From an uncultured candidate division Zixibacteria bacterium (lineage in GTDB: Bacteria > Zixibacteria > MSB-5A5 > UBA10806): a stretch of DNA of 64,000 nucleotides. Location: assembly GCA_963817915.1 (NCBI GenBank), contig CAWFQL010000012.1:288001-352000 (forward strand), given 5' to 3'. Shown here in pieces: positions 96-45,781 of the stretch. Made by a program: the position numbers and the translations under genes. The stretch's first letter is position 1; the number at the start of each line of letters is the position of its first letter. The notes beneath the pieces are model-generated. The model searched no databases, was not told where the DNA came from, and worked only from the letters and a program-made list of their open reading frames with translations.

Positions 96-533
96 CTACC
101 AAAATAGCAGCGGCTTTATCTTTTTTATGTAAAGTGACAGCAAATACGGCAGTTTTGCCATCATTTCAACACTATAATCTTCAGCTAAATGTGCATAGAT
201 CATTGTCGTATCAATCTGCGCATGACCTAATAGTCTTTGTACTGTGAATAATGGTACACCAGCCATCACTAAGTGGCTCGCAAAAGTATGCCTGAAAGTG
301 TGACATGTAGCCCAGGGAAGGCCAATCGAGGTGAGCACATTCGAGATGTGCCGGTCTAACCACCATTCAGACCATTGCGGAAGTTCTTTTCCTTTTTTAG
401 TAAAGGGGCCGAATACCTTCCAATCAGTCCGTTTTTTCAATCTATTTAGCATTTCAATAAAACTTGGTGAATACTTAAGTGGGATTACCCTATTTCGTTT
501 TCCTTTGGCATTAATGCCCTTAACTAACTCATG
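96..533 (-). pseudogene. C-terminal fragment of a tyrosine recombinase/phage integrase (N-terminus missing)
   Basis: HTFRHTFASHL (H-x-x-R), LLGH and TTMIYAH (catalytic Tyr). The frame stays open upstream of the ORF-track ATG through KGKRNRVIPL (catalytic Lys patch) to a TGA at 534-536. The first catalytic Arg and the core-binding domain are absent. Confidence 0.85.
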
Positions 534-650
534 TCACCTATTGTAAACCGAGTAATAGATTCCGGGAGTGTTCTTGATAATTGAAGTATAGCGTTCATCC
601 ACCATTTAATTACCTTAATGGCTTGGATGTCGCCCGGCATAAAACATAGT

Positions 651-668
651 TAGTGAAAAATTTCACTT
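651..668. promoter_or_regulatory. Rex-like palindromic operator next to a TTGACT -35-like hexamer upstream of hdrC
   Basis: TAGTGAAAAATTTCACTT = AGTGAA-N4-TTCACT, matching the Rex consensus core GTGAA-N4-TTCAC. TTGACT lies at 667-672. Confidence 0.6.
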
Positions 669-808
669 GACTTGCTTCCATATAAATGTAAATAGAATGC
701 TTGTCGGAGCAGCATGGTGGTGCGCCAATAGATTGTTTTTATTGCGAGGTTTATGGTGTCCTGACTAATGCTTATGAATACAATTAAAAATTAATATTCG
801 GAGGATCC

Positions 809-1396
809 ATGAAACACAACATTGATCCATTTCCCAAGAAGGAGGCCGAACTGAGAGCCGCATTCTGGGAACAGATCAGCAGTTTCCCCGATGGTCACAA
901 TATCAAAAACTGCCTGCAATGCGGCACCTGCACCGGAACTTGCCCCGTCTCATATGCAATGGACATTACGCCAAGACAAATTATCGCCATGTTTCGGGCG
1001 GGACTTGTCGAGGACGTGCTACAAAGCAGGACAATTTGGCTTTGCGCCTCGTGCTATTCCTGCACCGTGCGGTGCCCATCGGGAATCAGGGTGACCGATA
1101 CGCTCTACGCGCTGAAACGTACCGCCATGGATAAGAAAATCTATCCCCCGAAATTCCCCGTGCACACCCTGTCTCGAGCCTTCATTCAAAATGTCTATAG
1201 ATATGGGCGCAACTATGAACTTGGATTAGGCATTAGATATTTTCTTTCTACAAATTTCATTAAACTTTTCACCAATATAGGATATGGATTCTCAATGATA
1301 CGGCGCGGACGCCTTAATATTATTCCTAGACGACTCAAACGAATAAATCAGGTTCGGGCGATTATTAAAATAGCCGACCAATTCGGGGAGGGCTGA
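809..1396 (+). CDS. hdrC: Heterodisulfide reductase subunit C (2x[4Fe-4S])
   Basis: CLQCGTCTGTCP and WLCASCYSCTVRCP motifs; GGAGG RBS; stop overlaps the hdrB start. Confidence 0.92.
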   Translation: MKHNIDPFPKKEAELRAAFWEQISSFPDGHNIKNCLQCGTCTGTCPVSYAMDITPRQIIAMFRAGLVEDVLQSRTIWLCASCYSCTVRCPSGIRVTDTLYALKRTAMDKKIYPPKFPVHTLSRAFIQNVYRYGRNYELGLGIRYFLSTNFIKLFTNIGYGFSMIRRGRLNIIPRRLKRINQVRAIIKIADQFGEG

Positions 1397-2277
1397 TGCT
1401 GGAATATGCTTATTACCCGGGTTGCAGCCTGGAAAATTCGGCCGGTTCATACGATAAATCGATTCGCGAGGTTTTTAATCGGTTGGGAGTCGGCTTGCAT
1501 GAGATAGAAGATTGGAATTGCTGCGGTGCAACAATGTATATGTCCGTTAAAAAAATAATCGGCTATGCCATCAGCGCCCGCAATCTCGCTATCGCCCAGA
1601 ATATGGGAATGCAGATTTGCGCCCCATGCAGCAGCTGTTACACGATTCTGCGAAAAACAAATCGCCATATCGCCTGGAATGATAAAGAACGCATCAAAAT
1701 CAATGAAGCCTTGAAAGCGGCAGGGCTATCTTATGATACCATAGTCGAGGTTCGCCATCCGCTGGATATTTTGACCAGGGATATCGGTTTGGATTTTATC
1801 AAAGAGAAAGTGGTTAAGCCTCTAAAGGGAATCAAGGTTGCGCCATATTATGGATGTCAGATAGTCAGACCGCATGGATTTTTCGATAATGTCGACAACC
1901 CGATGACAATGGATCATCTTTTTTCGGCCATTGGCGCTCAGGCGGTCGATTACCCCGCCAAGGTCCGCTGTTGCGGTGGCATGCTGATGACAACTCAGGA
2001 GGATGTCGCCTTAAAATTGAATCTCACTCTTCTTCAGGCCGCTGTCGATAACGGCGCCGATATAATCGCTACCGGCTGTCCGCTTTGCGAAATGAATCTC
2101 GAAGCCTATCAAAATAAGATTAATAAAAAATTCGGACAGAATTTTGATATCCCGATTGTCTATTTCAGCCATTTGGTAGGCATAGCATTGGGGGCAAAAC
2201 CGGAAGCGATGGGTATCGACAAACTCCTGAAACAACCCACGAAATTGAATTCTATCGCTAGGGAGGTGATGACATGA
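1396..2277 (+). CDS. hdrB: Heterodisulfide reductase subunit B (two CCG domains)
   Basis: YYPGC..WNCCG..APCSSC and YYGC..RCCGG..GCPLC motifs. Confidence 0.95.
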   Translation: MLEYAYYPGCSLENSAGSYDKSIREVFNRLGVGLHEIEDWNCCGATMYMSVKKIIGYAISARNLAIAQNMGMQICAPCSSCYTILRKTNRHIAWNDKERIKINEALKAAGLSYDTIVEVRHPLDILTRDIGLDFIKEKVVKPLKGIKVAPYYGCQIVRPHGFFDNVDNPMTMDHLFSAIGAQAVDYPAKVRCCGGMLMTTQEDVALKLNLTLLQAAVDNGADIIATGCPLCEMNLEAYQNKINKKFGQNFDIPIVYFSHLVGIALGAKPEAMGIDKLLKQPTKLNSIAREVMT

Positions 2278-3251
2278 ACAATATTTCTACCAACGGTAAT
2301 GGCTATAACCCACCCCGTATAGGAGTTTATGTCTGCCATTGCGGCACCAATATCGCGAAAACAGTCGATGTCGTCAAAGTTGTAGACGCGGTCGCGGCAG
2401 TACCCGGTGTCATCATCGCCCGACATTATCGTTTTATGTGCTCTGATCCCGGCCAGGAGCTTATTCAAAAAGATATTAAAGAACTCAATCTAAATAGAAT
2501 TGTGGTCGCGGCCTGCAGCCCGTTGATGCATGAAGCGACATTCAGGAAAGCCGTCGAATCCGCGGGGCTGAATCGATATCTATTCGAAATGGCGAATATA
2601 AGAGAACAGGTAAGCTGGGTTACCGTCGATTCCAATGCCGCCACGAGAAAAGCCATCGCTTTGCTAAGGGGCTCGATAGCCAGAGTCAAATTACATGAGC
2701 CACTTGAGATGCGGCAGGTATCAATCACCAAACGAGTCATGATTGTCGGCGCGGGGATTGCTGGCATTGAAGCGGCCTTGCAGATTGCCGACGCCGGATT
2801 CGAAGTCATTCTGGTTGAAAGAGAATCTTCCATCGGCGGGCATATGTCGCAATTCGATAAGACTTTCCCGACTCTGGATTGCGCAGCCTGTATTCTAACC
2901 CCGAAAATGGTAAGTGTCGGCAAGCATCCAAATATCCGTTTGATCACATGGGCCGAGGTCGAGGAGGTCAAAGGGTACATTGGTAATTTCAAAATAAAGG
3001 TACGGAAAAAAGCCCGCTACGTCGATACCAAGCTCTGCAATAGCTGTGGTTCCTGCTATGAGGCCTGCCCGAGCCGTCCATATCCAAAATATAGAAGGAT
3101 GCTGCTTGGCGATAAGGTTTTCAAAGAGGGCAAGGCTCTTGATATACGCCATCCCGATTTATTAGGACCGGAGCATGATTTGACAGCATTGACTAGTGCC
3201 CAGCCGATGCCAGAAGCCGTGATTATTCCAGTCAATGGAGGCACAAAATGA
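2274..3251 (+). CDS. hdrA: Heterodisulfide reductase subunit A, N-terminal half (N-terminal Fe-S domain, FAD-binding start, first half of the inserted ferredoxin)
   Basis: RIGVYVCHCGTNIA, VVAACSP, ANIREQ, GAGIAG, DKTFPTLDCAACILTP, then one CxxCxxCxxxCP followed by an unrelated ~60-aa tail. Confidence 0.92.
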   Translation: MNNISTNGNGYNPPRIGVYVCHCGTNIAKTVDVVKVVDAVAAVPGVIIARHYRFMCSDPGQELIQKDIKELNLNRIVVAACSPLMHEATFRKAVESAGLNRYLFEMANIREQVSWVTVDSNAATRKAIALLRGSIARVKLHEPLEMRQVSITKRVMIVGAGIAGIEAALQIADAGFEVILVERESSIGGHMSQFDKTFPTLDCAACILTPKMVSVGKHPNIRLITWAEVEEVKGYIGNFKIKVRKKARYVDTKLCNSCGSCYEACPSRPYPKYRRMLLGDKVFKEGKALDIRHPDLLGPEHDLTALTSAQPMPEAVIIPVNGGTK

Positions 3252-3769
3252 AAACGATGATTGATTCGAAATACGATCTCGAGCAGGCTATTGATTCTAT
3301 TGTCAAAAAATATGAGGCCCAACCGACGGCATTGATAATGATCCTTCAGGATGTCCAGAAACATTACCGTTATCTGCCAGAGGCGGCCATTCGTCTGGTA
3401 TCAGCAAAAATGAATTTGCCGTTAGCGCAGATATACGGCGTGGCGACCTTTTATAGATCATTCAGCCTGAAGCCGAAAGGCAAAAATCATGTATGTGTCT
3501 GCACCGGGACAGCTTGCCATGTTCGTCAGGCGAATGTCATTGTTGAACGGCTGGAAACGGATCTCGGGTTAAAGGCCGGAGAAACATCAAAAGATCTCGA
3601 ATTTAGTTTAGAGACGGTCAATTGTCTCGGAGCCTGCGCTCTGGGGCCATTGGTGACAGCCAATGAAGTCTATTACGGAAATATGACCGTATCGAAGGTT
3701 GACCGGATGCTGGCGAAATTACAGGGCAAAGAAGAATCTCCTGATAATGATGAGGAGGAAGCCGCATGA
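3248..3769 (+). CDS. NuoE/HydC-like [2Fe-2S] subunit
   Basis: GVATFY, VCTGTACH, VNCLGACALGP; ATGA overlaps at both ends. Confidence 0.93.
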   Translation: MKTMIDSKYDLEQAIDSIVKKYEAQPTALIMILQDVQKHYRYLPEAAIRLVSAKMNLPLAQIYGVATFYRSFSLKPKGKNHVCVCTGTACHVRQANVIVERLETDLGLKAGETSKDLEFSLETVNCLGACALGPLVTANEVYYGNMTVSKVDRMLAKLQGKEESPDNDEEEAA

Positions 3770-5781
3770 GCGCATTGAAATTGTCATCTCCTCAGGAATT
3801 GGAAAAATTCAGGGCTCAACTGATAATGGGCCGTCAGACTAATAAGACTGTCATTACAATCTGCGCCGGCACCGGATGCCTGGCGTGCGGATGCGAATCA
3901 GTTACAAAAGCTTTCCGGGATGAATTAGCCGAAAGCAATCTATCCAAAGACGTTGATATCAAAACCACCGGATGCCATGGCTTTTGCGAACGGGGCCCGC
4001 TGGTAGTGATTCAGCCAAAGGGGATTTTTTACCAGAAGGTAAAGCCGTCCGATGTAAAATTAATAATAGACCAAACTATCAAGGGCGGACAGTTAGTCAA
4101 TCGTCTTCTTTACAAAGACCCCCAGACTAAACAGACCATAGTCGAAGAAAAAGATATCCCTTTTTACAAAAAACAGATGCGCCTGATATTCGGCAAAAAC
4201 GGTTTCATGGACCCGACCTCAATTGAGGATTATATTATTTTAGGCGGATACAAGGCGATCTCCAAAGCCCTCACCCAAATGCAGCCTGAACAGATTGTCG
4301 AAGAAGTAAAAAAGTCTGGCCTTAGGGGCCGAGGCGGCGGTGGATTTCTAACTGGAAAAAAATGGGCAACATGTCGCAAAGCCAAGGGCATTCCCAAATA
4401 TGTAATATGTAATGCCGACGAAGGCGATCCCGGAGCTTTCATGGACCGTTCGCTTCTTGAAGGCAATCCACATTCCGTAATCGAAGGCATGATTATCGGA
4501 GCGTTCGCCATCGGGAGCAATGACGGTTATGTATATGTCCGCAATGAATATCCTTTGGCGGTAAAAAATTTGACCATTGCCATCGCTGCGGCGAGGGAGT
4601 ACGGCCTTTTAGGAAAAAACATACTTGGGAGCGGATTTAATTTTGATATAGGAGTCTCTCGGGGCGGAGGCGCCTTCGTTTGCGGTGAATCGACAGCATT
4701 GATGGCGTCGTTGGAAGGCAAGACCGGCGAGCCGCGCGCTAAGTATATTCATACTGTTGAATCGGGACTTTGGGAAAAACCATCCAACCTGAACAATGTC
4801 GAAACCTGGGCTAATGTGCCATTGATAATCGAAAAGGGCGCCGAATGGTATGCCAGTATTGGCACTGAAAATTCCAAGGGCACAAAAGTTTTCGCGTTAA
4901 CAGGCAAAGTCAACAATACTGGCCTAGTCGAAGTCCCCATGGGAATAACTCTTCGCGAAATACTCTATGATATCGGTGGAGGCGTTCCCGGCAAAAAGCG
5001 GTTCAAAGCTGTACAAACCGGTGGGCCATCCGGGGGTACGCTGATAGTTGAAACCAGAGAAGAGAAAATTCACGATAGCCTGGTAGCGCATGGTGACATA
5101 CGCCAGGAAGAAGAAGTAATCAGCCTACTCGACCTACCGGTTGATTTTGATGAGCTAACCAAGGCAGGTTCGATGATGGGGTCCGGCGGCATGATAGTCA
5201 TGGACGAGGACTCATGCATGGTGGACGTGGCTAAATACTTCATCAATTTCCTGCAGGAGGAAAGCTGTGGGAAATGTTTGCCTTGTCGCGAAGGTTTGAG
5301 AACCATGCTCGATGTGCTTACCAGAATCTCCGACGGCCGCGGCGAGATGGAAGATATGGCGCTTTTAGAAGAGCTTTCGCAAGTTATTATTGATACCAGC
5401 CTTTGCCAGCTCGGCGGCAGCGCTCCCAATCCCATCCTTTCGACTCTAAGGTATTTCCGCCAGGAATATACCGCGCATGTTAAAGATAAACGTTGCCCGG
5501 CTGGTGTCTGCAAGGAACTTGTATCTCACGCCATTAGCGAAGACTGCAATGGCTGTCATGCCTGCGCCAAGCCGTGTCCTACTAACGCGATTAAAGGAGA
5601 TCTCAAGGGGCTTCATACGATTATTCAGGATAAATGCATTCAATGCGGCGCCTGCTATCAAATATGCAAATTCAACGCCATAAAGCGGGTGAAACGAGGC
5701 GAAGGGGATATAATCCAGCAGAAAGCAGGACAACAATGGCAGCCAAGAGCAAAAACTCAGCAACCATCGGTGAGCGCATAG
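3766..5781 (+). CDS. NuoF/HydB-like FMN/NAD(P)H-binding subunit with N-terminal thioredoxin-like [2Fe-2S] domain and C-terminal 2x[4Fe-4S]
   Basis: SGLRGRGGGGF, CNADEGDPGAFMD, GAFVCGE, GGPSGG, ESCGKCLPCREG, CPAGVC and two C-terminal CxxCxxCxxxC motifs. Confidence 0.95.
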   Translation: MSALKLSSPQELEKFRAQLIMGRQTNKTVITICAGTGCLACGCESVTKAFRDELAESNLSKDVDIKTTGCHGFCERGPLVVIQPKGIFYQKVKPSDVKLIIDQTIKGGQLVNRLLYKDPQTKQTIVEEKDIPFYKKQMRLIFGKNGFMDPTSIEDYIILGGYKAISKALTQMQPEQIVEEVKKSGLRGRGGGGFLTGKKWATCRKAKGIPKYVICNADEGDPGAFMDRSLLEGNPHSVIEGMIIGAFAIGSNDGYVYVRNEYPLAVKNLTIAIAAAREYGLLGKNILGSGFNFDIGVSRGGGAFVCGESTALMASLEGKTGEPRAKYIHTVESGLWEKPSNLNNVETWANVPLIIEKGAEWYASIGTENSKGTKVFALTGKVNNTGLVEVPMGITLREILYDIGGGVPGKKRFKAVQTGGPSGGTLIVETREEKIHDSLVAHGDIRQEEEVISLLDLPVDFDELTKAGSMMGSGGMIVMDEDSCMVDVAKYFINFLQEESCGKCLPCREGLRTMLDVLTRISDGRGEMEDMALLEELSQVIIDTSLCQLGGSAPNPILSTLRYFRQEYTAHVKDKRCPAGVCKELVSHAISEDCNGCHACAKPCPTNAIKGDLKGLHTIIQDKCIQCGACYQICKFNAIKRVKRGEGDIIQQKAGQQWQPRAKTQQPSVSA

Positions 5782-5790
5782 GAGGATGAG

Positions 5791-7542
5791 ATGGCAAAAA
5801 TCAAAATAAATAATCAGCCGATCGAAGTCGAAGACGGATCATTCATCCTCGAAGCCGCACGCAGTCTGGGCATCGAAATTCCGACATTATGCTATTACCC
5901 ATTCATGACTCCCTATGCCGCCTGCCGTATTTGCGCTGTCGAAGCCGGCGATGGCAGGGGCTGGACGAAAATTGTTACCGCCTGCAATTATCCGGCCTGG
6001 GATGGTCTCGAAATTCAAACCGCGACACCGAGAGTCTTGAATGCCCGCAGAATAAATCTCGAAATGATATTAAGCCGTTGCGCCCCTGCGCCGGTTCTCC
6101 AAAAGCTCGCCGATGATTTGGGTATCAAAAAACCTCGATGGGAGGTAGGCGATGATACATGCATTCTGTGCGGTTTGTGTGTGCGGGTATGCGATGACAT
6201 AGTCGGCGCTCATGCCCTGTCATTCGGAGAACGAGGCATTTACCGCAAAGTGACCACGCCATTTAATGAGCAAAGCGGAGATTGCATTTTATGCGGAGCC
6301 TGCGCCAAGGTCTGTCCCACAGGCCATATCGCGATGGAAGAAATCCACAACCGCGAGATTGTGCATAAAGATATTTCATTGGGCCCCAATACTGCGATAT
6401 CATTACAGTTTCGACAGGCTGTTCCCAATGTCCCCAGAATCAATCCCGAACATTGCATTCATTTCAAAACCGGCGGATGCGAGGTATGCTCGAAGGTCTG
6501 CCCGAAGGATTGCATCAATTACGACGAAAAAGATTCAATTGAGGAATTCGATATTGGCGCGGTCATCATGGCAACAGGATTTGATAATTTCGATCCGACA
6601 CCGATGACCCAATACGGCTATGGCAAATATCCCAATGTCATTACCGCTGAAGAGTTCGAAATGATGAACAATGCCGCCGGACCGACCGGCGGGAAAATCG
6701 TAATGGAAAACGGCCAGGAGCCGCGGGCGATAGGAATACTTCATTGCATTGGCAGCCGCGATCAGAATTACCATAAATACTGCAGCCGGGTTTGCTGTAT
6801 GTACGCCTTCAAATTTTCTCATCTGGTTAAGGAAAAAACTAAAGCGGAAGTATATCAATTCTATATTGATATCCGTAGTTTCGGCAAGGGGTACGAGGAA
6901 TTCTATCAGAGGATACTCAATGAGGATGTCAATGTTATTCGCGGCAAAGGAGCGGAAGTAATTCCATCCGGATTCAGGCGCGGCGAAGAGGGACCGCTCT
7001 TGATTCAATGCGAAGATACGCTTGTCGGCAAATTCCGCGAGATCCCGGTTGATATGGTAATTCTCTGCACGGCTCTTGAGGCCAGATCTGACGCTAAAGA
7101 AGTCGGCCGCAAATTCAATATCTCGACCGGTGCGGACGGCTGGTATATCGAGGCCCATCCCAAGCTTGGCCCTGTTTCGACAACAACTGACGGAGTATTT
7201 CTCGCCGGAGCCTGTCAGAGCGCTAAAGATATCCCCGATTCAGTAGCACAGGGTGGAGCGGCTTCATCACATGCCATGAAATTACTCTGCCAGGGCGAGA
7301 TCATGATGGATGCCGCCTACGCGGTGATCAAAGAGGAAAATTGCAGCGGGTGTAAAATCTGCAATGACCTTTGTCCTTATACCGCGATCGAATTTATAAT
7401 AAACAAGAAAGTAAGTTCGGTTAACTCAGCATTATGCAAGGCATGCGGTACTTGTGTTGCCGCCTGTCCATCGGGCGCGATTGTTGCCAGACATTTCACC
7501 GACGATCAAATATATGCCCAGATTGAAGGGATGCTATTATGA
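5791..7542 (+). CDS. Fusion of a NuoG/HydA N-terminal Fe-S module with the C-terminal half of HdrA
   Basis: IPTLC..ACRIC..TAC [2Fe-2S] and CILCGLCVRVC/CILCGACAKVCP, followed by HdrA motifs QAVP, GAVIMATGF, GPTGG, HCIGSRD, YCSRVCCMYAFK, FYIDIRSFGK, EAHPKL, GACQSAKDIP and a C-terminal 2x[4Fe-4S]. Confidence 0.92.
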   Translation: MAKIKINNQPIEVEDGSFILEAARSLGIEIPTLCYYPFMTPYAACRICAVEAGDGRGWTKIVTACNYPAWDGLEIQTATPRVLNARRINLEMILSRCAPAPVLQKLADDLGIKKPRWEVGDDTCILCGLCVRVCDDIVGAHALSFGERGIYRKVTTPFNEQSGDCILCGACAKVCPTGHIAMEEIHNREIVHKDISLGPNTAISLQFRQAVPNVPRINPEHCIHFKTGGCEVCSKVCPKDCINYDEKDSIEEFDIGAVIMATGFDNFDPTPMTQYGYGKYPNVITAEEFEMMNNAAGPTGGKIVMENGQEPRAIGILHCIGSRDQNYHKYCSRVCCMYAFKFSHLVKEKTKAEVYQFYIDIRSFGKGYEEFYQRILNEDVNVIRGKGAEVIPSGFRRGEEGPLLIQCEDTLVGKFREIPVDMVILCTALEARSDAKEVGRKFNISTGADGWYIEAHPKLGPVSTTTDGVFLAGACQSAKDIPDSVAQGGAASSHAMKLLCQGEIMMDAAYAVIKEENCSGCKICNDLCPYTAIEFIINKKVSSVNSALCKACGTCVAACPSGAIVARHFTDDQIYAQIEGMLL

Positions 7543-8003
7543 GCTTCGAACCAAAAATAATAGGCTTTTTGTGCAATTGGTGCAGCTATACGGGGGCCGA
7601 TCTGGCCGGGACGGCGCGAATGAAATATCCCGCCAATATGTTGAGCATTCGGGTAATGTGCAGCGGTCGTATTGATCCGGGATTTATCTTCGATGCCTTC
7701 AGCAATGGCGCCGATGGTGTTATCGTCTGCGGATGTCATCCCGGCGATTGCCATTATGTCGAGGGCAATTATAAGGTCATGCGCAGAATTCCTCTCACAA
7801 AGAAGATTCTCGAAAATATGGGGATTCCACCGGAGAGGCTTCAACTGGAATGGGTATCGGCTTCAGAAGGCGGCAGGTTTCAGGAAGTGGTGACTAAATT
7901 TACAGAGAAGATCAGGGCTATGGGGCCGTTGGACCTTAAAGAGCTGAAATTTGTCCCGGAGGCGATAATGGAGCAACATCTTGAAGGCAGGGACGCGACA
8001 TGA
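7539..8003 (+). CDS. mvhD: MvhD-type [2Fe-2S] adaptor subunit
   Basis: FLCNWCSYTGADLAG, RVMCSGR, GCHPGDCHY, WVSASEG. Confidence 0.95.
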   Translation: MSFEPKIIGFLCNWCSYTGADLAGTARMKYPANMLSIRVMCSGRIDPGFIFDAFSNGADGVIVCGCHPGDCHYVEGNYKVMRRIPLTKKILENMGIPPERLQLEWVSASEGGRFQEVVTKFTEKIRAMGPLDLKELKFVPEAIMEQHLEGRDAT

Positions 8004-8974
8004 CACCAAAACCTAAATTAGCGATCTATTGGGCGTCATCGTGCGGTGGATGTGATGTCGCTATTCTTGATATCGAAGAAAAAATTCTCGATGTGGCCAA
8101 TTTTTTCGATATAGTATTCTGGCCCTGCGCGACCGATTTCAAATATGATGATGTCAGAAAAATGGCTGATAAATCAATCACTCTTACACTTTTCAATGGC
8201 GCCATTCGGAGCGATGAAAATTTCGATATCGCCAGGCTGCTCAGGCAAAAATCACTTTTGCTTTGCGCATTTGGGAGTTGCGCGTCTGATGGCAGTATCC
8301 CTGCACTTGCAAATCTGGTCGACAAGGAATCGATTTTCGAATATGTTTACGGCAAATCCCCATCCTTAGATAATCACAATGGAACTATTCCTCAAACCAA
8401 GTGCTCGGTTCCCGAAGGAACTCTTACAATCCCGAATTTGTGGAATACTGTTCGCACCCTGGGGCAGACAGTCGATATCGATTATATTATTCCCGGCTGT
8501 CCGCCGCAATCAGATCAAATTGCCGGGGTAGTCGCGGCGGTAATTGATATTATCAGCAATGGCAAACAGCTGCCGCCCAAAGGAGTTGTCCTTGGCGCTG
8601 GCGATAAAAGCTGCTGCGATGAATGTCCTCGCGATCGCAATATCAAAAAGATCAAAAAATTTATAAGGCCATTTGAAATAATACTCGACCCTAAATTATG
8701 CCTTTTAGAGCAAGGGATTGTTTGTCTCGGACCGGCGACCCGATCCGGATGCAAAGCCAAATGCGTCTCGGCCGGTGTTCCCTGTAGAGGATGCTATGGT
8801 GCACCAGTCAATGTGCGGGATCAGGGGGCAAAGATGGTATCGGCCCTGGCGAGCGTAATAGATTCATCAGATCCCGCAGAAATCGATTCAATTATCGATA
8901 CGATTGCCGACCCCGTCGGGACATTTTATAGATTCAGCCTGGCGGATTCCATGTTAAGGAGGGTACAGCGATGA
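8000..8974 (+). CDS. mvhG: [NiFe]-hydrogenase small subunit, MvhG type (group 3c)
   Basis: SSCGGC, FGSCA, PGCPP, CDECPR, CLLEQG..CLGPATRSGC..C..PCRGCYG. Confidence 0.92.
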   Translation: MTPKPKLAIYWASSCGGCDVAILDIEEKILDVANFFDIVFWPCATDFKYDDVRKMADKSITLTLFNGAIRSDENFDIARLLRQKSLLLCAFGSCASDGSIPALANLVDKESIFEYVYGKSPSLDNHNGTIPQTKCSVPEGTLTIPNLWNTVRTLGQTVDIDYIIPGCPPQSDQIAGVVAAVIDIISNGKQLPPKGVVLGAGDKSCCDECPRDRNIKKIKKFIRPFEIILDPKLCLLEQGIVCLGPATRSGCKAKCVSAGVPCRGCYGAPVNVRDQGAKMVSALASVIDSSDPAEIDSIIDTIADPVGTFYRFSLADSMLRRVQR

Positions 8975-10452
8975 AGCAAATTTTGATTGACCCAATTACC
9001 CGATTGGAAGGACATGGCAAAATCCATCTTTTCGTAAACGACGACGGCAGTCTGGCGAATTGCTATTTTCAGGTGCCGGAGCTTCGCGGATTCGAGAAAT
9101 TTTGCGTGGGGCGACCAGTCGAGGAAATGTGCCGCATAACAACTCGCATCTGCGGAGTTTGCCCCGAAGCCCATCACATGGCGGCCGCCAAAGCCGCCGA
9201 CGCTGTCTACGGTGCTACAATTCCGTCAGCGGCAAGAAAGCTGCGGGAATTGGCATATAACGCATTCTTTGCGGGCGACCATACCACTCATTTCTACGCC
9301 CTGGGCGGGCCCGATTTTGTCTGCGGCCCGGATGCCCCTGCTCCAGAACGAAATATTCTCGGGGTCATTGCCAAAGTCGGTATCGATGCTGGCAGGAAAG
9401 TTATCGCACAACGTGCCGGAGGCCAGCGAGTAATCGAGATTATCGGCGGCAAAAAGATACATCCGGTTACCGCCTTGCCGGGCGGCATGTCCAAGCGAGT
9501 TACAAAGGAAGAACAGCAGGAAATAATCAAGATCGCCGAGGGAATGGTTGAATTCGGAAAATTTACAATAAAAGTGCTGAATGATATCGTGCTGGCCAAT
9601 AAGGCGTATGTCGATTTAATTCTTTCCGATACATTTACGCACAAAACCTATAACATGGGCCTGGTCGACAATAACAATAAGGTTAATTTTTACGACGGCC
9701 TTGTACGGGTTACAGCGCCCGACGGCACAGAACACGCCATATATGCGCCAAAAGATTATCTTGATTATGTTGCCGAGCACGTGGAGCCTTATAGTTATCT
9801 CAAATTCCCATTCTTGAAAAAAGTTGGCTGGAAAGGATTTGTCGACGGCAAGGATTCGGGCGTTTATAAGGCCACCCCTCTTTCGAGATTAAATGTCTCC
9901 GATGGTATGACAACGCCGCTCGCGCAAGCAGAATATGAACGGTTTTATGAAACACTGACCGGAGACCGATCGGGAAAGACACCGGTGCATTCAACATTGG
10001 CGACACATTGGGCCAGAGTAGTCGAGTTGATGTATGCCTGCGAGGCGACATTAGCACAAGCCAAAGACGACGAGATTATATCGGATCATATATTCGATCC
10101 CCCAACCGGAATCGTCGGAGAAGGTGTCGGAATCGTGGAAGCGCCGCGAGGTACGTTGACTCATCATTATAAGACGGACAAGAATGGTATTATCACGGAG
10201 GCTAATCTTATAGTCGGCACCACAAATAACAACGCCCCAATTTCAATGTCGATCAAGCGCGCGGCCGAAGGCTTGATAAAAAAGGGCGAAGCCATTACCG
10301 ACGGGACATTGAATAAGATCGAGATGGCTTTTCGTGCATATGATCCATGTTTCGGATGCGCGACTCATTCATTGCCGGGTCAGATGCCAATGGAAGTAAT
10401 TGTTCACGATAGCCAAACCGGTGAAATCATCCAAAGCGTCCGGAGAAATTGA
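8971..10452 (+). CDS. mvhA: [NiFe]-hydrogenase large subunit, MvhA type (group 3c)
   Basis: TRLEGH, RGFE, L1 RICGVC, EAPRGTL, L2 DPCFGCATH plus a cleavable C-terminal extension; context with mvhD and hdr. Confidence 0.95.
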
Positions 10453-10476
10453 CGCCTAATTAGCGGGCAGTACAAA

Positions 10477-10968
10477 ATGGCGAAACCGTACTTGATTCTT
10501 TGTCTCGGTAATGAAATATTATCAGACGACTCCTTTGGATTTAAAGTTTCCAATGTTTTAAATAATGGAGACGATCTCGGAGAGAAGATCGATGCAGTTT
10601 TTGCGCCGCTGGCCGGGTTCAATCTTCTTGATCTTCTTAAAGACCGTTCGTCCGTTCTGATCGTAGATACCATAATTACTTCTAACGCGAAGCCGGGGAC
10701 TATCCACTATTATCCCATGGGGCATTTCACGCCATCGAAACATCTGACCTGCTCGCATCAGGTCAACCTTCCCACCGCGCTTGAATTCGGCAGGCTTCTA
10801 GGAATGACCATACCTCAAAATATCGATGTCCTGGCAATCGAAGCCCAGGATGTCGAAACATTATCGGAAAAAATGACCGAAAATGTCTCCGCCTCATTGG
10901 AACCGGCAATCGAGACCATAAAGAATTGGATAACGCTTAGAAATAATGGAGACAATGCTGACGAATAG
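10477..10968 (+). CDS. Hydrogenase maturation endopeptidase
   Basis: LGNEILSDDSFG, IVDTI, SH motif; follows mvhA. Confidence 0.9.
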   Translation: MAKPYLILCLGNEILSDDSFGFKVSNVLNNGDDLGEKIDAVFAPLAGFNLLDLLKDRSSVLIVDTIITSNAKPGTIHYYPMGHFTPSKHLTCSHQVNLPTALEFGRLLGMTIPQNIDVLAIEAQDVETLSEKMTENVSASLEPAIETIKNWITLRNNGDNADE

Positions 10969-11083
10969 AATCATTAAATAATGTCAATGATAGATAATAG
11001 GGGTAAAATTTTTAAAGTTCCGTTGGAATGATTTTCCTGTCGCCATGGACTATTTGAAAAACTCCCTTTCCGAGAAATGACCA

Positions 11084-11883
11084 CAGCGACACCCCAACGG
11101 AAACAAGATGATACGCGACGGAATCCATTGAATACTACTCGAAATCACTTCAGATGGGCTGACTGTCTGGAAATATAAAGATCCGATGATTTGTAATTAC
11201 TAATACCCAAGCTAGTAATTCCATTTTTAATTTACTGTCAACCCCATCAAACTCGACATTTATTGGCCACTCTCTGCTACTCTCTGGTGCTCGATGGTTG
11301 CGAATGGTGCAGGTCATAGTTGATGGTACAAGAGGGCAAGCCCAGCTATCTCGTTCAACTTCACCGGTTTCAGCGCCCGATGCTCCGATATATAATTTCC
11401 CTATGAACAGGGGATACCATTTCTAATACAAACCGAACCTTTTCTTGGGATCATTCAGATCAAGTCCTGCAATATGATTTGCGTTTAGGCATGACTAACC
11501 CACCTCTCTCTGAATGCATAATCTCCGATACGTCTTATGAAGGTTCGATGCTTTTCGGGGATTCCACATATTATTGGCAAGTCGTCGCATTTAATTCCAT
11601 AGATTCAGTAGCTGGCCCAATCTGGGCATTTCATGTGGAAATGGATACAATGCGCCTTTTAGGAGGATGCACCTACCTCCCCGGCGATGTGAACGGCAGC
11701 AATTCCTTCAATGGCCTTGACGTAACCTACGCCGTCAATTACTTTAGGGGCTCCGGTAATTCACCTACATATTCGTGCGAGCGCCCCCCGCCGGACACTT
11801 GGTATGTCGTTGGTGATGCAAACGCTTCCTGCAGCTTCAATATAATAATCAGATTGTCAATCCGGCTGAATAAACGTCATTAA
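11084..11883 (+). pseudogene. Decayed secreted-protein gene: aryl-sulfotransferase-like propeller remnant + Fn3-like module + truncated dockerin-like tail
   Basis: 11084-11185 translates QRHPNGNKMIRDGIH*ILLEITSDGLTVWKYKDP with an internal TGA. A frameshifted Fn3-like segment (PDAPIYNFPMN / GDTISNTNRTFSW..YYWQVVAFN) follows. The dockerin breaks off in its second repeat. Confidence 0.65.
11668..11841 (+). repeat. Dockerin-like tail copy 1 (truncated)
   Basis: CTYLPGDVNGSNSFNGLDVTYAVNYFRG...GDANASCSFN, then diverges. Confidence 0.85.
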
Positions 11884-11945
11884 TCCAGATTTTAAATATG
11901 GCCGTCCCACCGGGCCGCCTTTTTTATTTATTGATTCCAATTTTA

Positions 11946-12056
11946 TAGCACAAATTTAGCACACGCCCCGTAACCTGCAGGTAGACAATATGGGAAACAG
12001 GCTTCAAATTCCAGTCTCTCCGTACTAATTTTCGCTATTTAAGCCGTTGTAAATCA
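11946..12056 (+). mobile_element. att-like repeat copy 1 with tRNA-Ser 3'-end core (12003-12022)
   Basis: TTCAAATTCCAGTCTCTCCG (T-loop, T-stem 3' strand, acceptor strand TCTCTCC, discriminator G); flanks align with the copy at 20657-20765. Confidence 0.65.
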
Positions 12057-12317
12057 AGCATGTCCGATTGTGTCATGGGAGACAATGCCTACACCTGACT
12101 AAAAGAATGGGACGAATTCTATAAAATTTTCTATTTGAGAAAAATCCCTGGTGCCGATTATATAGTCACCTTCTTTTATTAAAATTAAATATGAAATCAT
12201 ATTGCGCAGTTACGGGTTATAGGTATATTAGTTAGTGTGCATTTGTCCCAAGTCTTTTGGGATATTTTGGAAATTTGAGTCTTGCATTAAATTTTAGCCA
12301 TAGCCTTGGAGGAAACG

Positions 12318-14867
12318 ATGAAACTGAAAGCTATCATTTTGTTGAGCAGCATCATGACCATATCGGTGACATCTACTCTTTGGGGACAAGAGATCACCAG
12401 GGATCAGTTTCGTAGAAATGAATGGGAAATGAAATCTCGCCGATGGCAGAACGAGAAAGCTCGTCAAAACCAGGGGACTATTCTCGATCAGACTGATTTT
12501 GACGCCAAGTATTGGGAATTACATTATGATGTGACCAATATTTCCGGCCAGATATTGACAGGCAAGGCGATCCTGACATCCCAATCCAATATCAATGGGC
12601 TTTCTTCAATCGATTATAATTTCACGACCGGCATGACTGTCGATTCTGTCCGCATGAACGGTGCTCCCGTAACCTACACCCGGCCTACTAATATCCTTCG
12701 AATTACCCTGAATCGGGGCTATAATACCGGAGAACTTTTCACCACCACAGTCTATTATCATGGCCACCCCGATCCCAGCGGCTTTGGCTCTTTTACCTGG
12801 AACAGCCATAACGGCCAGCCGATTATATCCACTCTTTCCGAGCCCGAAGGGGCTAGAGATTGGTGGCCCTGCAAAGACGGACCCCACGACAAGGCCGACT
12901 CTGCCGATGTTTACATCACATGCGGTTCGAGTTACACAGGGGTATCCAATGGCGTGCTTGTCAGCAACCAGGATAACGGCAACGGCACCCGTACTTTCCA
13001 TTGGCATATTTCATATCCTATTACGACCTATCTGATTTGTATCGCAATCAGCAACTATCAATCATTCACGGATTGGTATGTGGGAATTAACGGCGATTCC
13101 ATGCCGGTAACAAATTATGTTTATCCAGAATTGTACAGTCAGGCGGTTGAGGATTTCAATATTGTCCCGGGGGCGCTGGAAATCTATGCCAGCATGTTTG
13201 GTGAATATCCGTTCTTCAGGGAAAAATTCGGTTACTCTTTATTTCCCTGGGGCGGCGGTATGGAGCATCAAGACAATGTCTTTTTCGGCTCTATGCTAAT
13301 CTCCGGAAACCATTATTATGATTGGATCACGGTGCATGAGATGAGTCATCAATGGTTTGGCGACGCCATCACTTGCGATATCTGGCCCGACGTTTGGATG
13401 AATGAGGGATTTGCCTCATATTGCGAAGCGCTTTATTATGAGCGGCTGTATGGTTTTGATTATTATGTCAGCTACGAACAAGGCAATAACGGGGTCTACG
13501 ATCCCAGCGGCCCAATTTATAACCCGAGCGATCTTTTTAATGGCAATACCGTCTACAACAAAGGCAGTTGGGTTCTACATATGCTTCGGGGAGTAATGGG
13601 AGATTCGGCTTTCTTTCAAGGGATGCGTTCTTATGCCACAAATCCAGCCTGCTTTCAGGGTACAATAACGACCAGAGGTTTTCAGCATCTGATGGAGCCA
13701 TTCTATGGGGATAGTCTTGGTTGGTTTTTCGATGAGTGGGTATGGGGGCAGAACCGTCCCATATATCGATATTCATGGACAAAATCAAATTTGGGCAATG
13801 GCCAGTATGAGGTCTTCCTGCATGTTCGCCAGACCCAGACCACTCCTGCTCCCAATGTTTTTATAATGCCTATTAAAATCTATCCCCGAATCAATAACGT
13901 CGATACGGTTATCGCGATCTGGAATGATGCCCGCGTAAATGATCTTAGATTTGTGGTCAATGGCAATCCGGCAACCCTCGATTTTGACAAGGTGCCCTGG
14001 ATTCTGCGAGATGCTGCTTCTGAAGCTTATACGATGAATATAGTTACTACTTCACTCCCGAATGGTGCAGTCGGAATTGCCTACGGCGATACCATTGAGG
14101 CTCGCGGAGGGATTCTGCCGTATCATTTCAATATCCAAAGCGGACATCTGCCAGCAGGATTAGCGTTGAATAGCAATACCGGAGTCATCAGCGGCACACC
14201 GACAACAGTCGAGATAGATTCATTTACCGTGCGATGCACGGATTCATCTGGCCCGACCAAAACCGATGATCAGAATTATATAGTCGCAATTGCTTCTTCA
14301 CCGGTTTTGGAAATCCTGACGTTATCATTACCCAACGGCCGTCAGGATAGCACCTATGAAGAGATAATAAACGTTCTGGGCGGCATCCAGCAATATCATT
14401 TTAGTGTGGCGAGCGGTATTTTACCCGGAGGATTGATATTAGATGCAACTGGCGGTAATATAAACGGTGTACCGACAACAGCCGAAGTAGATACATTCAC
14501 GATTCATTGTGAAGACTCGTCTATCCCGCCGCTTTTTGATAACCAACTCTATATAGTCACTATTGAGCCCGCGGCTGGCTGTCAATATGTTCCGGGTGAT
14601 ATAGCAGGCAATGGAGTCTTCAATGGCCTCGATGTTACCTACAGCGTAAATTATTTCAAGGGTGGTACGCCACCGCCGTTTAGTTGCGAATGCACTCCCG
14701 GCAATATCTGGTATGTGGCGGGCGACGTGAATAACTCATGTTCGTTCAACGGGATCGATGTTACCTACATGGTCAATTATTTCAAGGGAGGACCAGCCCC
14801 GATACCATGCGTTGATTGTCCACCTGCCGGCTTTTCTCGCTCGTCTTCAATTATTCCCGAACAATGA
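12318..14867 (+). CDS. Secreted M1-family zinc aminopeptidase with two Ig-like (He_PIG-type) domains and dockerin-like tail
   Basis: Signal peptide; GGMEH, HEMSH..WMNEG, VYNKG; two 'LPNG..Y..GG..Y.F....G.LP.GL.L...TG.I.G.PT' repeats. ATG 12318 follows GGAGG. Confidence 0.92.
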   Translation: MKLKAIILLSSIMTISVTSTLWGQEITRDQFRRNEWEMKSRRWQNEKARQNQGTILDQTDFDAKYWELHYDVTNISGQILTGKAILTSQSNINGLSSIDYNFTTGMTVDSVRMNGAPVTYTRPTNILRITLNRGYNTGELFTTTVYYHGHPDPSGFGSFTWNSHNGQPIISTLSEPEGARDWWPCKDGPHDKADSADVYITCGSSYTGVSNGVLVSNQDNGNGTRTFHWHISYPITTYLICIAISNYQSFTDWYVGINGDSMPVTNYVYPELYSQAVEDFNIVPGALEIYASMFGEYPFFREKFGYSLFPWGGGMEHQDNVFFGSMLISGNHYYDWITVHEMSHQWFGDAITCDIWPDVWMNEGFASYCEALYYERLYGFDYYVSYEQGNNGVYDPSGPIYNPSDLFNGNTVYNKGSWVLHMLRGVMGDSAFFQGMRSYATNPACFQGTITTRGFQHLMEPFYGDSLGWFFDEWVWGQNRPIYRYSWTKSNLGNGQYEVFLHVRQTQTTPAPNVFIMPIKIYPRINNVDTVIAIWNDARVNDLRFVVNGNPATLDFDKVPWILRDAASEAYTMNIVTTSLPNGAVGIAYGDTIEARGGILPYHFNIQSGHLPAGLALNSNTGVISGTPTTVEIDSFTVRCTDSSGPTKTDDQNYIVAIASSPVLEILTLSLPNGRQDSTYEEIINVLGGIQQYHFSVASGILPGGLILDATGGNINGVPTTAEVDTFTIHCEDSSIPPLFDNQLYIVTIEPAAGCQYVPGDIAGNGVFNGLDVTYSVNYFKGGTPPPFSCECTPGNIWYVAGDVNNSCSFNGIDVTYMVNYFKGGPAPIPCVDCPPAGFSRSSSIIPEQ
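14580..14825 (+). repeat. Dockerin-like tail copy 2
   Basis: CQYVPGDIAGNGVFNGLDVTYSVNYFKGG..SCECTPG..GDVNNSCSFNGIDVTYMVNYFKGG..PCVDCPP. Confidence 0.9.
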
Positions 14868-44422: not shown

Positions 44423-45781
44423 TCAAGATCGCTTGCCCACAATTAGAGCAGTAGGGCCTGGTAGCGCGATCTTTCTGATATCCGTGAATCCGGCCGATAA
44501 TAACCATTCCCGATATTCATCCTCGCTATAGGTAGAACCTGAACGTGTCGCCACCAGCATATTGATCGCGAACATAGCCCCGCTTAATGGTGAAGTCTTA
44601 TCGGAACTCATAATAAAATCCTGCATCACTACCTGTCCGCCAGAAGTCATCGCCTTATATATTTTTCGAAATAACCGCATATTTTCATCAGGGCTGAACA
44701 TATGGCAAATCGCTGAAATTAATGCCAGATCATACCCTTGGCCCAAATCATCTGTAAGCATGTTGCCTCCGCGAGTTGTTATTCTATCCTCAAGGCCCGA
44801 GTCGCGGATATATTTTTGTGTCAACAGCAGTACTTCCGGAAGGTCGAAAATATCGGCATGAATATTTGAATTGGCGCGCGCGAGCGCAATCGAATAAGCA
44901 CCTGAGCCGCCTCCAATATCCAGGACTCGCTTGGTCCGGCTTAAATCAAAAGCCTTTACAACTATCGGCGCGCGGAAATTTGCATTCTTATGCATCGCGG
45001 CTATAAATGCTTCCGTGTTTTGCGCTGATCTTTTTCGTCTTTTAGCTGGCGTTGATTTACCATTGGATACACAATCGGTCAATTTCGACCAACTGTCCCA
45101 GAGATTCACGGTATGCATCAGGCTCATCCTGGAATCATCTTTACTCCCCCCAACGAAATACCGTTTGACCATATGCGAATTGCGATAAATGCCATCCTGC
45201 TTTTCGAGTAAATTCAATGCAGCAAGTGAATTCAGCAACGCTTCTGTTCCTCTCTGGTCAAGATTGAGTTTCGCTGACAATTCTTTCACGCTTGAACCAT
45301 CTTTAATTGCGCTGAAAATATCCAATTCGACAGCAGTAAGAATAATTCGACTTGAGCGAAAGCCCTGAATGATTTGCATTAGATCATCGGGTATTACACC
45401 TGCTTCATCCTGAGCCCTTAATGCGGCCAGCATTTTGGCCTTATTGAATTCGATTTCGATTTTCAAGGCGGATGAGTCGCTATTTGCCAGATGTTCGACC
45501 GTTCGGCCCGATTTAAAATGCTCGTCAATAATTTCGATTATGTTTTCAGGTGTCAGCCCGGAGTACCAAATACCATCAGGATAAACAACCATATTCGGTC
45601 CGCGCTCGCATAAGCCGAGCGAACCGCAGGCTGTAATTTGGACATCATTTCCTAATCCACGGCTTATTATCTCCTTTCTCAGCACTTCAATAACCCTTGC
45701 TGATCCTCTCGCCGAACAACACGGGGCGCCTTCCGGCTTCTTTTGATCGCAGATATATACATGGTAACGGAAAGCTTCCAT
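44423..45781 (-). CDS. Thioredoxin-like [2Fe-2S] ferredoxin fused to a class I O-methyltransferase
   Basis: HVYIC..CC..CGSLGLCERGP..VYPDGIWY, then dimerisation helices and LDIGGGSG, H.F, M...T..G..Y. Confidence 0.85.
   Translation of the reverse strand: MEAFRYHVYICDQKKPEGAPCCSARGSARVIEVLRKEIISRGLGNDVQITACGSLGLCERGPNMVVYPDGIWYSGLTPENIIEIIDEHFKSGRTVEHLANSDSSALKIEIEFNKAKMLAALRAQDEAGVIPDDLMQIIQGFRSSRIILTAVELDIFSAIKDGSSVKELSAKLNLDQRGTEALLNSLAALNLLEKQDGIYRNSHMVKRYFVGGSKDDSRMSLMHTVNLWDSWSKLTDCVSNGKSTPAKRRKRSAQNTEAFIAAMHKNANFRAPIVVKAFDLSRTKRVLDIGGGSGAYSIALARANSNIHADIFDLPEVLLLTQKYIRDSGLEDRITTRGGNMLTDDLGQGYDLALISAICHMFSPDENMRLFRKIYKAMTSGGQVVMQDFIMSSDKTSPLSGAMFAINMLVATRSGSTYSEDEYREWLLSAGFTDIRKIALPGPTALIVGKRS

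Follow-up and report, generated by a model that had tools for sequence, protein, structure and literature searches.

Introduction

Of the four known families of electron-bifurcating enzymes, two are those of the HdrA and Bfu types. Here we describe an operon in which both occur, the gene for HdrA being split in two and the genes of a Bfu-type module lying in the gap. The operon is located in a 64 000-nucleotide stretch of the genome of an uncultured candidate division Zixibacteria bacterium (GenBank assembly GCA_963817915.1, contig CAWFQL010000012.1, positions 288 001 to 352 000 of the forward strand; hereafter the window, from whose first letter all positions are counted). It comprises ten co-directional open reading frames (ORFs), tightly packed on the + strand at 809–10968 in the order hdrC, hdrB, hdrA(N), bfuC, bfuB, bfuA(N)::hdrA(C), mvhD, mvhG, mvhA and a hydrogenase maturation protease gene. 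We put at roughly 55% the probability that these ten genes build one soluble complex, in which H2-driven bifurcation at the flavin adenine dinucleotide (FAD) of HdrA would have its low-potential branch hard-wired to an NAD+- and ferredoxin-reducing Bfu module.

Judged by its parts, the closest characterised system is the MvhAGD-HdrABC complex of methanogens (structures 5ODC and 8RVU), all six subunit types of which are encoded here. Bifurcation at the FAD of HdrA is described as sending one branch to HdrBC and the other out through a ferredoxin domain inserted in HdrA, which the same two sources call the low-potential exit (PMC9012536; bioRxiv 10.64898/2026.04.10.717634). In Bfu enzymes, according to Schut et al. 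(2022; PMC9304861), electrons arriving via the clusters of BfuA are passed by BfuBC, reversibly, to NAD+ and ferredoxin, and Type 2 BfuA is presented as lacking the A3 and A5 clusters. The Type-2 Bfu enzymes include WorABCSL (9MQX) and NiFe-HydABCSL (7T2R; Acetomicrobium mobile), the latter having a group 3 [NiFe] hydrogenase as its partner (PMC9304861).

Judged by principle, the closest system, and also the closest tested enzyme, is the class II benzoyl-CoA reductase (BCRII) Bam[(BC)2DEFGHI]2 of Geobacter metallireducens ('Bam-Bfu'), with which the coupling of HdrA- and Bfu-type modules in one enzyme was first shown in 2026 (bioRxiv 10.64898/2026.04.10.717634, hereafter the BCRII preprint). 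As set out in that preprint, the HydBC-type BamGH acts via BamI to feed BamE, a fused tandem HdrA, at its C-terminal ferredoxin and at the MvhD-like BamF; a tungsten enzyme and an electron-transferring flavoprotein are given as the outputs (BCRII preprint; PMC9304861). A further precedent is HdrA9-11 of the anaerobic methanotroph group ANME-1, in which a GltD/NfnB-like NAD(P)H module is reported to be inserted in the inserted ferredoxin domain (PMC9012536).

Results and discussion

HdrA is divided within its inserted ferredoxin domain

The genes were assigned by Pfam and NCBIfam profile searches of the proteins of the window. Two of them share out a single HdrA. The N-half (2274–3251, +; 325 aa) aligns over residues 12–272 with residues 10–270 of the solved HdrA chain 8rvu_a (E 1.5e-105), and the C-half makes up residues 194–583 (6370–7542, +) of a 583-aa fusion protein (5791–7542, +), residues 164–582 of which align with residues 245–650 of the HdrA chain 5odc_A (E 1.3e-106). 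Along the single HdrA2 model NF040770, the N-piece covers positions 1–256, the C-piece 262–639 and MvhD 647–774, with no loss and no duplication; the two HdrA pieces, about 2.5 kb apart in the operon, are thus exactly complementary.

The break falls inside the inserted ferredoxin domain and separates its two Cys motifs. In the N-half, the N-terminal cluster domain is followed by the opening part of the FAD Rossmann fold, after which come motif I (CxxCxxCxxxCP; C255–C265, nt 3036–3068) of the inserted ferredoxin and a conserved, Cys-free tail of 60 residues (266–325, nt 3069–3248). The C-half resumes with the inserted-ferredoxin loop and motif II (C222, C230, C233 and C237, nt 6454–6501) and continues with the rest of the FAD domain, including its [4Fe-4S] ligands (C319, 331, 335 and 336) and K341, and with the C-terminal 2x[4Fe-4S] ferredoxin. 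The HdrA ligand set is complete, from the N-terminal cluster Cys and the DCxxC pair to the [4Fe-4S] Cys of the thioredoxin reductase-like (TrxR) domain, the Lys and the C-terminal 2x[4Fe-4S] ferredoxin. In the alignment with 5odc_A, K341 falls on the Lys of 'CCMYAMK', which we take to be Lys409 of 5ODC HdrA, adjoining N5 of the FAD. In BamE, the equivalent Lys is given as Lys280 (BCRII preprint).

Ahead of the FAD-domain remainder, the fusion protein has a [2Fe-2S] motif and three ferredoxin-type motifs (C124–134, C165–175 and C222/230/233/237), its N-terminus being of the NuoG/HydA type (Fer2_4 and Fer4). This N-terminal module (fusion residues 1–185, 5791–6345, +) is colinear with 9mqx_A, residues 11–185 corresponding to 14–189 of that 247-aa Type-2 BfuA chain, with the C124 and C165 motifs included. 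The His-ligated cluster motif (H..C..C) of longer NuoG/HydA proteins is not in the fusion, where the site reads 'SRCAP'. Because this motif is absent and the colinearity extends over the module, we assign the fused NuoG-like part to Type-2 BfuA, with a [2Fe-2S] cluster at C34, 45, 48 and 65; the same colinearity identifies the C124–C134 and C165–C175 motifs as BfuA's own 2x[4Fe-4S] ferredoxin. With these two motifs so assigned, it is the C255 motif of the N-half and the C222 motif of the fusion that would have to make the inserted ferredoxin of HdrA in trans, one Cys motif per polypeptide, as alignments and predicted contacts both suggest. Nesting of BfuA inside the inserted ferredoxin is also supported by a public 660-aa protein (P0256), since it has the equivalent parts unsplit and in that order: Rossmann fold and motif I (its residues 1–127 match N-half residues 151–277 at 50% identity), then Fer2_4 (151–229) and Fer4 motifs, then HdrA-C (405–659). 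Across 42 sequences, N-half Cys 21, 23, 56, 81, 203, 206, 255, 258, 261 and 265 were invariant, as were all 12 Cys of the BfuA module and the ligand Cys and K341 of the C-half.

A Bfu core is encoded between the two halves

The gene directly after the N-half, bfuC (3248–3769, +), encodes a NuoE/HydC-like, [2Fe-2S] thioredoxin-like protein (Pfam 2Fe-2S_thioredx, PF01257, 3.1e-50), whose best solved matches are the HydC/BfuC chains of bifurcating enzymes (8a6t_C at 6.4e-44, 7p5h_C, 7t2r_C and 9mqx_C). It is followed by bfuB (3766–5781, +), encoding a NuoF/HydB-like protein of 671 aa (PF01512, PF10531, PF10589 and Fer4) with an N-terminal 2Fe-2S domain, a flavin mononucleotide (FMN)/NADH site, an SLBB domain, the NuoF 4Fe-4S domain and a C-terminal 2x[4Fe-4S] ferredoxin domain. 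The best solved matches of BfuB are BfuB/HydB chains of experimentally bifurcating enzymes (9mqx_B, 3.3e-235; 7t2r_B, 8.4e-235; 8a6t_B, 2.6e-222), and they span the protein from its N-terminal 2Fe-2S domain through the FMN core to the C-terminal 2x[4Fe-4S] domain; compared with the solved chains, BfuB carries a 27-residue insert at 427–452. At the domain level, the features by which PMC9304861 delimits the Bfu family are all found here, namely the BfuB domain set, a NuoE-type BfuC and a BfuA with 2Fe-2S and 4Fe-4S ferredoxin-type domains.

A preliminary description of this DNA, made from the letters alone, had reported seven overlapping junctions, NuoE-like and NuoF-like genes between two pieces of hdrA, a second piece formed by the last ~390 aa of 5791–7542, and a NuoG/HydA-type module fused to it. 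The ORFs sit exactly where it placed them, seven of the nine junctions do overlap, and both the Pfam/NCBIfam matches and the alignments to 8rvu_a and 5odc_A agree with it; the fused module can now be narrowed to a short Type-2 BfuA without the His-ligated cluster.

The two halves are predicted to reassemble

The complex of the N-half and the fusion protein was predicted from our own 42-sequence alignments for each half, with FAD included. The interface score ipSAE was 0.82, 0.82 and 0.83, whereas none of three controls scored above 0.00; in the calibration of the tool, for which the setup differed from ours, this mark was attained by 116 of 157 solved complexes and by 2 of 215 mismatched pairs. 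The runs shared at least 92% of their contacts, with a predicted local distance difference test (pLDDT) score of at least 83 for the partner. The most confident contacts, between fusion strand 255–262 and N-half strand 155–159, belong to the Rossmann sheet, and N-half residues 254–291, comprising motif I and the tail, contact fusion residues 123–174 and 199–244. The two pieces are thus predicted to rebuild the FAD domain of HdrA, and a failure of the halves to reassemble, which the preliminary description had named as a ground for abandoning its reading, is not what the model indicates.

The remaining genes complete an Mvh-Hdr set

Upstream of the N-half, hdrC (809–1396, +) matches Pfam Fer4_8/Fer4_17 and, under its cut-off, NCBIfam CoB_CoM_SS_C (3.5e-23); a motif search found Cys 35, 38, 41, 45, 79, 82, 85 and 89 of HdrC, that is, two CxxCxxCxxxC ([4Fe-4S]) motifs. 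The product of hdrB (1396–2277, +) matches Pfam CCG over two stretches (2.9e-26), and both CCG motifs are complete (C10..C42C43..C75xxC78 and C154..C192C193..C228xxC231, by motif search); in methanogen HdrB, the CCG motifs ligate two non-cubane clusters. Downstream of the fusion follow mvhD (7539–8003, +), for the [2Fe-2S] adaptor (Pfam FlpD 1.1e-55; NCBIfam VhuD 1.5e-38), mvhG (8000–8974, +), for the [NiFe] hydrogenase small subunit (Pfam Oxidored_q6; NCBIfam VhuG 7.3e-62, under cut-off), and mvhA (8971–10452, +), for a large subunit of the Mvh/Vhu type (Pfam NiFeSe_Hases; NCBIfam VhuA 5.2e-116, under cut-off). MvhA has RICGVC at residue 59 and DPCFGCATH at residue 458, followed by a 27-residue C-terminal extension for the protease (motif search), and the last gene (10477–10968, +) encodes the maturation endopeptidase (Pfam HycI; TIGR00072 6.3e-26, over cut-off).

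Of the nine junctions, six are 4-nt overlaps, one is a 1-nt overlap and two are gaps (9 and 24 nt), and a GGAGG-like sequence precedes most of the starts. A scan of 300–12400 returned 31 promoter-like sites (22.5 ± 4.9 expected) and 14 terminator-like sites (12.7 expected), none of them informative about where the operon begins or ends.

The locus compared with known systems

With the methanogen Mvh-Hdr complex the operon shares the domains and ligands of HdrA, the CCG motifs of HdrB, MvhD, the active-site motifs of MvhA and the maturation protease. Since the NCBIfam scores fall below equivalog cut-offs, the sequences suggest that the Mvh and Hdr proteins of the operon are relatives of the methanogen proteins and not their equivalogs, and the host is a non-methanogenic bacterium, the closest loci being those of Ignavibacteriales, Zixibacteria and Calditrichaeota metagenome-assembled genomes (MAGs). 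Whereas HdrA is one polypeptide in methanogens, here it consists of two, split inside the inserted ferredoxin, with BfuA nested at the split and the genes of BfuB and BfuC in the gap; low-potential electrons therefore probably do not leave through a free ferredoxin docking on HdrA.

BCRII, as described, likewise couples HydBC/Bfu-type and HdrA-type modules through a BfuA-like subunit, with sequential flow through two bifurcation devices, but the wiring differs. There the Bfu module is the input and HdrA is duplicated, whereas here the input would be a [NiFe] hydrogenase, BfuA lies on the exit side at the inserted ferredoxin, and HdrA is single and split; the HdrBC of the operon is a normal one with both CCG motifs, and no tungsten or AOR-type (aldehyde ferredoxin oxidoreductase) gene is present within the operon. 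The operon would thus couple the two module types of BCRII by different wiring, splitting a gene so that one ferredoxin domain needs two proteins.

The insertion site, and HdrA as the host protein, are shared with ANME-1 HdrA9-11 and with one of the related loci, that of a Dehalococcoides MAG (L008), where a one-piece 860-aa HdrA carries a GltD-like insert at the same site in an hdrCB/mvhDGA context. In those proteins the insert is one GltD-like flavoprotein domain and HdrA remains one polypeptide, whereas the operon has a split gene and, as its module, a Bfu system of three subunits. Because NfnB/GltD-like inserts occupy the same site in ANME-1 and in L008, modules that handle NAD(P)H recur as insertions in the inserted ferredoxin domain of HdrA. 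With WorABCSL and NiFe-HydABCSL, finally, the operon shares the best matches of BfuB and BfuC and the short BfuA; in those enzymes, however, the subunits for the third substrate dock directly on BfuA, while here BfuA runs on covalently into one half of HdrA, a flavoprotein that bifurcates in its own right and has an HdrBC branch.

Apart from the review by Appel et al. (2021) and Supplementary Table 1 of PMC9304861, neither of which was covered, our literature search found no description of a split hdrA with nuoE/nuoF in the gap, and a supplementary text of PMC9304861 contains no Hdr or Mvh term. A paper on an Ignavibacteriae genome names such a cluster simply 'MvhADG/HdrABC' (PMC7509429). Nor did we find, in that literature, a paper characterising the complex, a possibility that the preliminary description had allowed for; the related coupling of modules has been shown experimentally in BCRII. 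Mvh-Hdr, Bfu and the coupling of both module types are thus known, and what would be new, against that literature, is the split HdrA, the Bfu module at the exit and the hydrogenase at the input.

The arrangement is widespread

Fifteen related loci were found with the fusion protein as query. Gene order was common to six of the 15 over their available DNA (L002, L003 and L006 keep it, as do L004 and L005 over shorter contigs), and all ten genes were present in four, one of them with frameshifts. The order-sharing loci include Ignavibacteriales, Zixibacteria, Calditrichaeota and 'Tariuqbacter' MAGs, with identities of 66–81% among the related loci compared. In a seventh locus, L001, only mvhD is missing, and an 821-aa ORF (L001:7992–10457; also G164:C70:9532–11223) has HdrA-C, up to residue 564, in frame with MvhG, from residue 66, a junction due either to a natural deletion or to a collapse of the assembly. 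Another related locus, L009, has an ordinary HdrA. A TetR-like gene stands upstream of the operon in L002 and L003.

Among public proteins, the fusion recurs in at least 119 other clusters at 90% identity (579–604 aa, 65–83% identity, 99–100% coverage) and the N-half in at least 119 as well (317–334 aa, 68–83% identity), both pieces going only by the names 'heterodisulfide reductase subunit A/A2', '4Fe-4S dicluster domain-containing protein' or 'FAD-dependent oxidoreductase'. We also sampled 285 genomes of the class to which the window belongs, counting the fusion when a match, among those listed, started at fusion residue 4 or earlier. It was present in 48 of the 285, and in 45 of these 48 bfuB lay directly upstream on the same strand; the three exceptions were G061 and G065, with bfuB on another contig, and G262, with no bfuB match at E <= 1e-150. 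Elsewhere in the sample, HdrA was ordinary (frames of 664–701 aa) or bore a long insert (1146–1177 aa). With records from Zixibacteria, Calditrichaeota, KSB1, Eisenbacteria and Thermoanaerobaculaceae besides, in which it mostly goes under 'MvhADG/HdrABC' or 'heterodisulfide reductase subunit A', the arrangement is common in uncultured anaerobes, and the possibility that it is unique to this assembly, raised in the preliminary description, no longer holds.

At the 50%-identity level, BfuA-N stood directly before HdrA-C in 13 of the best 150 representatives, plus two fragments, and these 13 took three forms: with a C-terminal ferredoxin (three, one of which is also fused to MvhD), without it (eight) and with a second HdrA unit following (two). 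From these 150 representatives, 214 HdrA-C segments were placed in a tree (FastTree, rooted at the midpoint, without a clade test). The 14 segments fused to BfuA were not united in a single clade, 140 of the 214 tips descending from their common ancestor, and many of the neighbours were fragments; the nearest neighbours of the window's protein include insert-bearing forms. One public representative (P0250, 706 aa) has BfuA::HdrA-C further fused to MvhD, the FlpD domain occupying residues 587–704. Within the window's family, one genome (G260:C9:10503–14192) has a second, 49%-identical BfuA::HdrA-C copy with its own bfuB directly upstream, that is, a paralogous system.

Proposed electron flow and energetics

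We suggest that MvhAG would oxidise H2 and deliver the electrons via MvhD to the FAD of HdrA. From there the high-potential electron would pass to HdrC and HdrB and on to a disulfide, and the low-potential electron would pass through the trans-assembled ferredoxin to the BfuA clusters and then to the BfuBC core, which would reduce NAD+ and ferredoxin. The BfuA module, covalently ahead of the C-half and nested between the ferredoxin motifs, would dock BfuB and BfuC. Overall, the reaction would be approximately 4 H2 + 2 RSSR' + NAD+ + Fd(ox) -> 4 thiols + NADH + Fd(red, 2 e-). We infer the single complex, the direction, the stoichiometry and the substrate from the genes; a route from H2 in to Bfu out is the simplest reading, since the input via MvhD and the ferredoxin of the C-terminus and the HdrBC branch are both intact and BfuA lies in the exit domain.

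Potentials given in the literature are -414 mV for H2, -140 mV for the heterodisulfide, -320 mV for NAD and about -500 mV for ferredoxin. With these values, the calculated mean acceptor potential is about -275 mV with NAD+ as co-acceptor, compared with about -320 mV for the canonical reaction. At 10 Pa, H2 would stand at about -296 mV by the Nernst equation, where by calculation only the reaction that includes NAD+ stays exergonic. By raising the mean acceptor potential, NAD+ as a co-acceptor could therefore let the enzyme work at lower H2 pressure.

More tentatively, and with odds somewhat below even, the operon may stand for a wider principle: two mechanistically different bifurcating devices in series, the Bfu device with its FMN and Fe-S clusters being hard-wired to the low-potential exit of the FAD-bearing HdrA, so that one H2-oxidising enzyme would yield both NADH and reduced ferredoxin, paid for by disulfide reduction, while the inserted ferredoxin of HdrA would serve as a general 'plug-in socket' for GltD- or Bfu-type NAD(P)H modules across many uncultured phyla. 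If this were true, the devices in series would allow a lower H2 threshold or supply ferredoxin of unusually low potential. Should the reaction proposed above hold, current metabolic models would misassign what these organisms gain from H2 oxidation, and the substrate of bacterial HdrBC would become testable with a defined enzyme.

Several observations weigh against the H2-oxidising complex as we propose it. The pairing of motifs in trans rests on colinearity and on a coarse list of predicted contacts, and the score of the complex prediction may reflect the model's memory of solved HdrA structures; the fusion modelled by itself with AlphaFold2 scored moderately (mean pLDDT 69.8, predicted template modelling score 0.42), the BfuA part (residues 1–140) being confident and residues 183–260 poor. 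A Bfu device normally takes mid-potential electrons, and here it would be given low-potential ones, for which the H2 threshold would be the rationale. Profile searches with Pfam and NCBIfam and a comparison of neighbourhoods brought out no evident thiol carrier gene in the operon, and HdrBC would need its disulfide in a non-methanogen. There is also a related locus, L007, that has the split and the BfuA fusion with no nuoE/nuoF between the halves, which lie 14 nt apart (L007:7025–9740); the tail motif GPxHDLTxLTGAQPMPE of the N-half, conserved in relatives, is absent from it, and the only BfuB-type gene of that genome is in a separate bfuC-bfuB-bfuA-gltB-like operon behind a sigma-54 two-component system (L024, G001:C71:328000–346000). 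Because L007 lacks these genes in the gap, the BfuA::HdrA-C fusion may not always need a dedicated BfuBC.

The same complex could also run backwards. NADH and reduced ferredoxin would then be confurcated at BfuBC and enter HdrA via the inserted ferredoxin, the FAD would be reduced together with thiol electrons from HdrBC, and MvhAG would release H2 as a fermentative valve. Such a direction is in keeping with the reported reversibility of Bfu enzymes (PMC9304861), with the confurcating operation described for BamGH (BCRII preprint) and with a paper on an Ignavibacteriae MAG that assumes re-oxidation of NADH and reduced ferredoxin by a group 3c Mvh/Hdr (PMC7509429). Moreover, the genome of the window (93.9% complete) has 0 matches to PF02906, hence no [FeFe] hydrogenase domain, and the bfuB of the operon is its only BfuB-type gene, so that, of Bfu type, this complex alone is a candidate for getting rid of NADH and reduced ferredoxin in the form of H2. 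However, one high-potential thiol electron would be consumed per low-potential one, which calls for a continuous thiol supply that no gene of the operon accounts for, and the genome has a second [NiFe] hydrogenase elsewhere; on balance we think this direction unlikely. Still less probable, in our view, is that the Bfu module is an alternative input, making the complex a disulfide reductase that depends on NADH/ferredoxin or on H2, with electrons passing from BfuA via the clusters of HdrA to HdrBC and with the second bifurcation site idle. The Bfu module is indeed the input to an HdrA-like subunit in the published account of BCRII, and HdrBC here retains both CCG motifs, but in that account the input comes via BamI, the C-terminal ferredoxin domain and the MvhD-like BamF, a route that here serves MvhD and MvhAG. 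BfuA, in addition, is inserted in the very domain that PMC9012536 and the BCRII preprint call the low-potential exit, and BfuB still has two domains typical of bifurcating members, the C-terminal one that binds ferredoxin and the N-terminal 2Fe-2S one.

There might, finally, be no single machine at all, but a disrupted hdrA (a pseudogene or an assembly artefact) or two independent enzymes, Mvh-Hdr and Bfu, sharing an operon. The frameshifts in some related MAG loci (L003) and the odd in-frame HdrA-C::MvhG of L001 could be read in this way. Yet the halves are exactly complementary with all ligand residues invariant, each recurs in at least 119 other clusters at stable lengths (317–334 and 579–604 aa), start and stop codons overlap, and two independent enzymes would not explain why BfuA is covalently fused to HdrA-C or why bfuB is adjacent in 45 of the 48 fusion-bearing genomes. 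A very small chance is all that we would grant to this explanation; its frameshift, pseudogene and assembly-artefact versions are contradicted by the conservation data and we rejected them, so that the view of the preliminary description that this is an organised operon and no frameshift artefact stands, on the complementary halves, the overlapping codons and the conservation. The single H2-oxidising complex with the Bfu module at its exit thus remains the reading we prefer.

Genome context and minor observations

About 350 nt upstream of the operon, a 118-aa ORF (96–452, −) matches the phage integrase family, over the C-terminal part only. GC content is 0.405 at 1–1000, compared with 0.467–0.503 across most of the operon, and in the window's family a bfuB match (E <= 1e-150) was present in only 2 of the 13 other sampled genomes, a patchy spread. 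The operon might have arrived horizontally, as the nearby integrase-like ORF and the rise in GC hint and with which the patchy spread agrees.

When the surroundings of the operon were searched for a conserved gene that might encode a thiol carrier, just one extra ORF proved conserved, in three of the six loci compared: a small one (89–107 aa) for a DnaJ-CXXCXGXG/anti-TRAP-like zinc ribbon after the protease gene (L002:13126–13434, L006:13387–13656 and L007:13128–13451); no counterpart was seen in the window at 10900–12350.

Further along the window, zwf (glucose-6-phosphate dehydrogenase) appears as two overlapping + strand ORFs (49089–49892 and 49819–50625) that cover positions 2–232 and 235–484 of TIGR00871, either because the gene is really split or through a frameshift or sequencing error. 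A 452-aa ORF (44423–45781, −) combines an N-terminal 2Fe-2S ferredoxin (residues 3–98) with a BchU/CrtF-type O-methyltransferase (146–435), an unusual fusion. Two large ORFs on the + strand, of 1883 aa (23372–29023) and 789 aa (20980–23349), have no NCBIfam match at E <= 1e-8 and sit among several proteins with type IX secretion system (T9SS) sorting domains.

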